From a virus (Duplodnaviria > Heunggongvirae > Uroviricota > Caudoviricetes), in IMG/VR virus record IMGVR_UViG_3300032335_000499: 64,000 bases of DNA; one strand, 5' to 3'. Each line of letters begins with the position of its first letter. Positions within the stretch are counted from its first letter, which is position 1. Below, piece by piece: positions 56,511 to 57,160 of the stretch. A program made the position numbers and the translations under genes. The notes below the pieces were generated by a model. It made no database searches, was not told the DNA's origin, and saw only the letters and a list, made by a program, of their open reading frames with translations.

Positions 56511-56924
56511 ATGACAACTCAAATTGATTTAAACAAGTACGCAGATTTTGTTCTTACTGTAGCGTCGGAACCTAGCAAGGATGCAGAAACATTTGTAGAG
56601 CATGTTCGTAAGCTACACAACAACAGCCGTGTTAATATCCCGTTGCTACTCACTTCAGGTATCGGTCTTGCTAGTGAAGGTGGAGAGTTCAACGAAATCG
56701 TGAAGAAGATTTTCTTTCAGGGTAAGCCCCTCAACGAAGAAAACATTTTTCATATGAAGCGTGAACTAGGCGATATTATGTGGTATTGGATGAACGCTTG
56801 TAACGCACTTGGTCTTGATCCTAACGATGTTATTGCTGAAAACGTTAGCAAGCTAGAAGCACGTTATCCAGGCGGCGAGTTTGATGCACACTACAGCGAG
56901 AACCGCAAAGAAGGTGACTTGTGA
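56511..56924 (+). CDS. mazG: MazG-like NTP pyrophosphohydrolase
   Basis: GLASEGGEFNEIVKK, ELGDIMWY, NVSKLEARYP. Confidence 0.9.
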   Translation: MTTQIDLNKYADFVLTVASEPSKDAETFVEHVRKLHNNSRVNIPLLLTSGIGLASEGGEFNEIVKKIFFQGKPLNEENIFHMKRELGDIMWYWMNACNALGLDPNDVIAENVSKLEARYPGGEFDAHYSENRKEGDL

Positions 56925-57160
56925 GCAATAAGCTTGAAGCATCTATTTTAAAACTTATCGCTGAACAGTTTGGTTTAGGCAAAGTACATCCTAAAGATCG
57001 TCTCATTGAGGATTTAAAGGGCGATGCATTAGACGCAATTGAACTTGTAATGCGCCTAGAAGAAGAATTTAATGTTCAGATACCTGATGAAAAACTAGAC
57101 TATATCATCACTGTACAGGATGCTATTGATTGCGTTATTAAAAGTAAGCAGTTAGTTTAA
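56921..57160 (+). CDS. acyl carrier protein-like, lacking the conserved Ser
   Basis: EDLKGDALDAIELVMRLEEEFNVQIPDE versus canonical [20 protein letters not shown]. Confidence 0.85.
   Translation: MSNKLEASILKLIAEQFGLGKVHPKDRLIEDLKGDALDAIELVMRLEEEFNVQIPDEKLDYIITVQDAIDCVIKSKQLV

Follow-up and report, generated by a model that had tools for sequence, protein, structure and literature searches.

A Serine-less Acyl Carrier Protein Look-alike Encoded Directly Behind MazG in a T4-like Jumbo Phage

Organization of the Locus

The window analysed here, a stretch of 64,000 nucleotides from IMG/VR virus record IMGVR_UViG_3300032335_000499, belongs to an uncultured jumbo phage, T4-like and about 330-340 kb in size. 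The sheath protein of this phage is about 44% identical to the sheaths of PA5oct, Atu_ph07, and Phosso; a megablast search of the locus against cultured phages gave no match. Three genes follow one another behind a sigma-70-type promoter: a gene for a 386-residue protein, mazG, and a gene for a 79-residue protein that resembles acyl carrier protein (ACP) but has alanine where ACPs have the serine that takes the 4'-phosphopantetheine. A hairpin separates this unit from the gene for a gp13-like neck protein (Table 1).

Table 1. Features of the locus, with positions in the 64,000-nucleotide window.
Feature	Position	Strand	Remarks
Promoter, sigma-70-type, GGCTTGACA-N17-TATAGT	55275-55306	+	33 nt 5' of the first gene of the operon (386 aa); 11 of 12 positions match
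386-aa backbone gene, phrog_11903, function not assigned	55339-56499	+	First in the promoter-MazG-ACP unit
MazG-type nucleoside triphosphate pyrophosphohydrolase, 137 aa	56511-56924	+	PF03819 and phrog_229
GTGA overlap, GTG start of the ACP-like ORF inside the MazG stop TGA	56921-56924	+	
ACP-like ORF, Ser-less ACP fold, 79 aa, net charge -6, helix II DALDAIELVMRLEEEF	56921-57160	+	Profile, model, and structure matches
GCA codon for Ala36, site of the phosphopantetheine Ser36 of AcpP	57026-57028	+	Column-for-column alignment
Hairpin between the ACP-like gene and gp13	57177-57225	+	Loop with late-promoter-like GATAAATA; 3' arm CAGGAAAC over the gp13 Shine-Dalgarno
gp13-like neck/head-tail adaptor protein	57221-58006	+	phrog_211; PF26809 Phage_T4_gp13; downstream border of the variable slot

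The promoter hexamers, TTGACA and TATAGT, are kept in 19 of 19 related loci, with a spacer of variable sequence. The extended motif occurs three times on the + strand of the window against none expected in shuffled sequences; the copies lie at 1049-1080, 55275-55306, and 58007-58038, the last just 5' of a dNMP kinase gene. This three-copy class probably represents the early promoters of the phage, set among late structural genes.

The 386-residue gene that opens the unit is kept 5' of MazG in at least 38 related loci; for its product, a Pfam search returned no match and an Atlas feature search stayed below useful scores. MazG family proteins bind metal through an ExxE(12-28)ExxD motif. The preliminary description of this DNA had named the second gene mazG, and the name stands: the product matches PF03819 (E 7e-9; 36.2 bits against a cut-off of 22) and phrog_229 (E 1.5e-48), and its motif, E59-F-N-E62 and E85-L-G-D88 at a distance of 22 residues, is intact and invariant in the MazG alignment, making it a typical phage MazG-like pyrophosphatase. 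A search of the PDB with the MazG profile gave no sequence match. The overlap of mazG with the ACP-like gene, also reported earlier, is GTGA here, and in all related loci it is either GTGA or, in divergent alleles, ATGA/TGATG; a Shine-Dalgarno-like GAAGGTGA stands at 56910-56917, 5' of the ACP-like start.

The hairpin ahead of gp13 has a predicted free energy of -20.6 kcal/mol (z -4.7; none of 200 shuffled sequences was as good), and its stem and loop are kept in eight loci. The loop sequence GATAAATA matches the T4 late promoter TATAAATA in all but one base; an exact copy of TATAAATA precedes the sheath gene at 59078. In T4, a hairpin over the Shine-Dalgarno of a late gene blocks its translation on early read-through transcripts, and the arrangement before gp13 resembles this silencing device. 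Together, promoter and hairpin suggest that the 386-residue protein, MazG, and the ACP look-alike would be made early, by the host RNA polymerase.

The region is flanked by two small ORFs, at 54468-55028 (+) and 58663-59019 (-), which resemble HNH-type endonucleases and have zinc-ribbon motifs but borderline Pfam scores; they are possibly homing endonucleases that add to local mosaicism.

Identity and Fold of the 79-Residue Protein

By profile, model, and structure the 79-residue protein is a true ACP-fold homologue of the PP-binding superfamily. It scores 36.7 bits with PF00550 (PP-binding; cut-off 20.8, E 5e-9) and matches phrog_5934, annotated 'acyl carrier protein', at E 5.6e-17; the best solved relatives found by a profile search of the PDB are proteobacterial AcpP proteins (E about 1e-17). 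An AF2 model (pLDDT 73) shows the four-helix carrier fold. Nearly all of the 50 Foldseek matches listed for it are ACPs, and several of these structures were solved together with MukB, FabZ, LpxD, AcpS, or NFS1-ISD11.

The preliminary description had pointed to G-D-A-L-D in place of the D-S-L-D of ACPs, with recognition helix II and IPDE left intact, and both observations hold. The codons GGC GAT GCA TTA GAC (57020-57034) encode G34-D35-A36-L37-D38, followed by AIELVMRLEEEF and IPDE. In the PDB profile search Ala36 falls in the same column as Ser36 of AcpP from E. coli and Pseudomonas, and in a HMMER alignment with AcpP the stretch DLKGDALDAIELVMRLEEQF places Ala36 exactly on Ser36, with helix II nearly identical. 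The helix II docking residues D35, D38, E41, E47, and E48 are all kept, and they are invariant both in the family alignment and in divergent alleles. The defining feature of PP-binding proteins, the serine of the D-S-L motif that takes 4'-phosphopantetheine, is absent. Since the acceptor serine is missing, priming by a phosphopantetheinyl transferase and carriage of acyl chains by the normal route should be impossible for this protein, and because the defining feature of a carrier fails, the name 'acyl carrier protein' is a misnomer.

The nearest comparison is AcpP of E. coli, Pseudomonas, and Acinetobacter, especially in its apo form: fold and length are the same, identity is about 43-45%, and helix II and IPDE are common to both. 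In contrast to AcpP, the phage protein has no Ser36 and would never occur as holo- or acyl-ACP; its loop I is two residues shorter and Gly replaces A34; and it is encoded by a phage, outside a fab cluster and apparently with no phosphopantetheinyl transferase (PPTase). Its net charge is -6, against -13 for AcpP and -10 to -17 for other alleles of the family; being less acidic, the window protein may dock more weakly on AcpP clients. The window holds no second PP-binding ORF. Neither a PF00550 nor a PF01648 gene was found in a 333-kb relative that is 92% complete, and the nearest record, a 35-kb fragment (G001), has no ACP and no PPTase.

Serine Loss Across Relatives

At least 120 relatives of the protein are present in a large protein collection, at 79-99% identity, all of about 79 residues and on contigs of up to 338 kb; among the first 120 matches listed, the site is Ala in nearly all, Val in three, and Ser in none. 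A profile search over 1.8 billion cluster representatives placed the window group in one 50% cluster and found several further clusters that share the G-D-A-L-D signature. With divergent alleles added as queries, the census grew to 254 non-redundant relatives, in which site 36 is Ala in 230, Asp in 7, Gln in 7, Pro in 4, Val in 3, and Leu in 3; Ser or Thr occurs in none of the 254, divergent alleles included. The residues that flank the site, D35, L37, and D38, do not vary. These three, with E41, V43, M44, E47, and E48, stay unchanged even where two alleles are only 38-49% identical, and the surface conserved across alleles consists of the end of helix I, the DxLD turn, and helix II.

That the GCA codon is one base from TCA had been raised as a caveat in the preliminary description, and a single serine-less copy could be put down to an error in sequencing, a private mutation, or decay into a pseudogene. 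This explanation is refuted by the site census, the variety of codons, and the dN/dS values, and has practically no probability left. The identical protein is encoded on four independent contigs from different metagenomes (L001-L004), and the exact 79-residue sequence on 31 contigs in all; in a comparison of 17 loci, Ala36 is written with three synonymous codons (GCA, GCT, or GCC) and pairwise dN/dS of the ACP-like gene is 0.03-0.47, well below 1; the reading frame is intact and the core invariant. The orthologues thus share the absence of serine that the preliminary description had asked to be looked for, and on these comparisons the Ser-less state is conserved and the gene is under purifying selection, so that its picture of a real ACP homologue that could not take phosphopantetheine in the normal way holds.

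A tree built without the site-36 column, and weak because the sequences are short, implies at least 13 parsimony changes at the site, towards Asp, Gln, Pro, Val, or Leu only. The chance of no serine over 13 changes comes to about 0.09 when all six single-base neighbours of an Ala codon are given the same weight, and to about 0.02 under LG-like exchange rates; these values are only suggestive of active avoidance of serine.

The same census bears on whether the protein might still act as a carrier, with a different residue or some unusual chemistry used for loading, a reading that we regard as very improbable. S8 and T64 are invariant and could be candidates for such loading; T64, however, is conserved in ordinary AcpP too, and S8 lies in helix I, far from the turn that faces the transferase. 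No phosphopantetheinyl transferase is encoded in the near-complete relative, and site 36 itself tolerates Pro, Asp, Gln, Val, and Leu.

Turnover of the ACP-like Gene on a Conserved Backbone

In 19 IMG/VR loci the order of the 386-residue gene, MazG, ACP, and gp13 is constant, as is a 4-nt overlap. Divergent ACP alleles, 38-49% identical to that of the window, occupy the same place in this backbone, and their flanks are much better conserved (MazG 74-91% and gp13 81-93% identical, the gp13 range holding even beside ACP alleles of 38-45% identity); the ACP gene therefore behaves as a fast-turning cassette on a conserved backbone.

A survey that started from MazG covered 80 IMG/VR loci, with MazG proteins 61-96% identical; an ACP gene is present in 4 of them and absent from the other 76. 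In the ACP-less loci about 55 nt separate MazG from gp13, or unrelated small ORFs stand between the two. Because it is absent from 76 of the 80 MazG loci and from the 92%-complete 333-kb relative, and because the window has no second ACP, the ACP-like gene is regarded as accessory within this clade of T4-like jumbo phages.

In the IMG/VR relatives L034-L061, the space between MazG and gp13 is a hot spot where small accessory genes collect: it may be empty (about 55 nt) or hold a 70-residue membrane protein ending in ...AQYNPKTADFEFKRC, a basic coiled-coil ORF of 60 residues, or larger ORFs. In another locus (L119), three further small ORFs lie between ACP and gp13.

A hypervariable cassette on a conserved backbone, in a slot that gathers small accessory genes, is what might be seen if the look-alike were an adaptor for another phage protein or for a component of host defence, that is, an anti-defence or bait protein in an arms race and no metabolic decoy. 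A bacterial Shedu nuclease (P0135; SduA_C, PF14082) also fits with this idea, in that its N-terminal part holds two ACP-like domains that lack the serine, one with GDALD and one with GDVLD; it is a protein of 516 residues whose gene lies on a 138-kb bacterial contig. When relatives of this fusion were sought, no other with an ACP turned up, and the single relative recovered carries a cold-shock domain in place of the ACP-like ones. The fusion thus seems to stand alone, which weakens the argument. We know of no defence system that depends on ACP, and this too counts against an anti-defence or adaptor role, which we consider doubtful and rank after the MazG partnership discussed next.

Association with MazG

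Every copy of the family with a readable upstream side sits directly 3' of MazG, with an overlap of 1-4 nt; the evidence for this adjacency spans more than 30 loci and at least 10 alleles. The pair is found in two different genomic backbones, the second being a nucleotide-metabolism cluster with DUF3307, dCMP deaminase, IMPDH, and NAD synthase genes; none of the IMG/VR MazG loci shares this DUF3307 backbone. The link is one-sided: the ACP-like gene is always with MazG, and MazG of the phrog_229 type is mostly without an ACP-fold partner, which only a minority has (the 4 of 80 IMG/VR loci above). The coupling to MazG put forward in the preliminary description thus stands as adjacency in two backbones with overlapping reading frames, and falls short as a general property of these MazG genes.

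Because the adjacency recurs in the second neighbourhood, it suggests that MazG and ACP genes travel together and yield their products in a fixed ratio, and the strict place behind MazG means that the partner of the look-alike could be the phage MazG instead of a host protein. The look-alike would then be a dedicated accessory or regulatory subunit, a small acidic module that tunes the activity, specificity, or stability of MazG. Such a role is the main rival to the reading preferred below, and we hold it to be possible but unlikely. The repetition of the pairing in an unrelated neighbourhood, across the many loci and alleles just given, argues for it; against it, MazG proteins of the same family (61-85% identical) lack an ACP in 76 of the 80 loci, where the slot is empty or filled by unrelated small genes, so that adjacency is no proof of joint action. 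Divergence of the two proteins is also uncoupled: one locus (L017) has a MazG of 74% identity with an ACP of 82%, whereas another (L024) has a MazG of 87% with an ACP of 44%. Finally, the conserved surface of the look-alike is the AcpP docking surface and no new one, and in other phage lineages the genes for Ser-less ACPs stand apart from MazG.

A Ser-less ACP-like gene without MazG was seen in one further locus (L031), where the 79-residue product (P0206) has Gln at the site, within GADQLD; the context is phage-like, with small genes, and adjoins an HNH-like ORF.

Proposed Action as an Unloadable AcpP Mimic

With the AcpP fold and its docking helix but no acceptor serine, the look-alike would act only by binding, and because an AcpP-like surface is what the alleles conserve, docking on a protein that normally docks AcpP is the simplest reading. 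We propose that it is a permanently apo, unloadable mimic of AcpP that targets a host client and so contributes to early takeover, a reading for which belief and doubt are about evenly balanced. The phage would make the mimic early, from a host-type promoter and on one transcript with the 386-residue protein and MazG; the mimic would work purely through protein binding by its AcpP-like helix II surface; and it would occupy one of the host proteins on which AcpP ordinarily docks, for example PlsB, AcpS, enzymes of fatty-acid or lipid A synthesis, or SMC proteins of the MukB type. Early timing, docking on a host client, and a physiological effect are the parts of this proposal that we infer, and on the sequence evidence a decoy role is plausible.

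The candidates for such a client differ in their need for the prosthetic group. AcpS necessarily binds the apo form of ACP. Apo-ACP inhibits the glycerol-3-phosphate acyltransferase PlsB and stops growth of E. coli (reviewed in PMC3896788), and the ATPase activity of MukB is stimulated equally by apo- and holo-AcpP (PMC8602292); MukB, PlsB, and AcpS are therefore compatible as targets. SpoT, which the preliminary description had listed among the partners that might be titrated, does not bind apo-ACP (PMC3896788), and a SpoT link is unlikely. Binding of IscS is lost in the S36T variant of AcpP (PMC13343975); a role in Fe-S metabolism, to which a radical-SAM island in this genome had drawn attention, was set aside since IscS binding requires Ser36. 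As SpoT and IscS need the prosthetic group, the range of targets would be narrower than the full set of ACP partners, and it is because published work narrows the candidates to those independent of the prosthetic group that the host-client mimic is favoured here.

ACP is among the most connected proteins of the bacterial cell. If made early, a natural copy of it, kept by selection, that cannot be loaded would be a simple means of acting against membrane synthesis, chromosome handling, and other ACP-dependent steps. Since the protein should be unable to carry anything, the database label 'acyl carrier protein', or assignment as an auxiliary gene of lipid metabolism, appears to be wrong in function for the present family. 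The Ser-less protein is a ready-made probe for ACP interactions that are independent of the prosthetic group, and its strict pairing with MazG offers a concrete two-gene system that could address the long-open role of phage MazG in infected cells.

Relation to Other Serine-less and Phage-Encoded ACPs

The closest published natural precedent is the mitochondrial ACP of Plasmodium falciparum, which is Ser-less and acts by binding the LYR protein Isd11 (PMC8547962); natural loss of serine is common to both, and action by binding is what we propose for the phage protein too, but the Plasmodium protein is eukaryotic and organellar and comes from an unrelated context.

Among phages, the genes of Ackermannviridae annotated 'acyl carrier protein' (Kuttervirus SS9 gp150 and Miltonvirus 3M gp095) have likewise lost the serine and encode a very similar helix II (DLGGDDLDAIEIVMELEEEFNVEISD). 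They have an acidic residue at the site, Asp in SS9 gp150 and Glu in Serratia phage 3M gp095, whereas the present family mostly has Ala, and, unlike the present family, they have an N-terminal extension and no MazG neighbour; the GGD-D-LD variant is also found inside the present family. Other PP-binding proteins of phages, some with a GGD turn, are phiRSL1 ORF083, pf16 gp58, P-HM1 PHM1_027, fHe-Yen9-04 g153, and that of Vibrio phage P018-4; in contrast to the family described here, these keep DSLD and could be primed, and several have long extra domains.

A literature search turned up no account of Ser-less or apo ACPs encoded by phages; two papers, one on a jumbophage (PMC13573597) and one on the proteome of Vi01-like phages (PMC10892097), mention phage ACPs in passing only. 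What is new in the present family is its occurrence in a T4-like jumbo lineage, a mostly neutral residue at the site, the obligate place behind MazG, the turnover of the cassette, and the early-operon signals.

A broader and more speculative reading, which we rate as improbable, is that Ser-less ACP look-alikes are widespread, so far unrecognised phage effectors aimed at an AcpP client that is independent of the prosthetic group, candidates being SMC complexes of the MukBEF or defence type, PlsB, and AcpS. Allele turnover would then reflect an arms race, the Shedu domains would be host bait, and the look-alike would be delivered together with MazG as a two-gene early module.

The best match to a named phage in tblastn, 'Acinetobacter phage MD-2021a' (L022, CAKLQH020000007.1), was rejected as a phage relative, being a fragment of a bacterial chromosome with the order rpmF-fabD-fabG-acpP. 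The Ser-containing ACPs of Vibrio phage P018-4, pf16, and P-HM1 (L023, L114, and L115) are fused to 80-110 extra residues at the C- or N-terminus.
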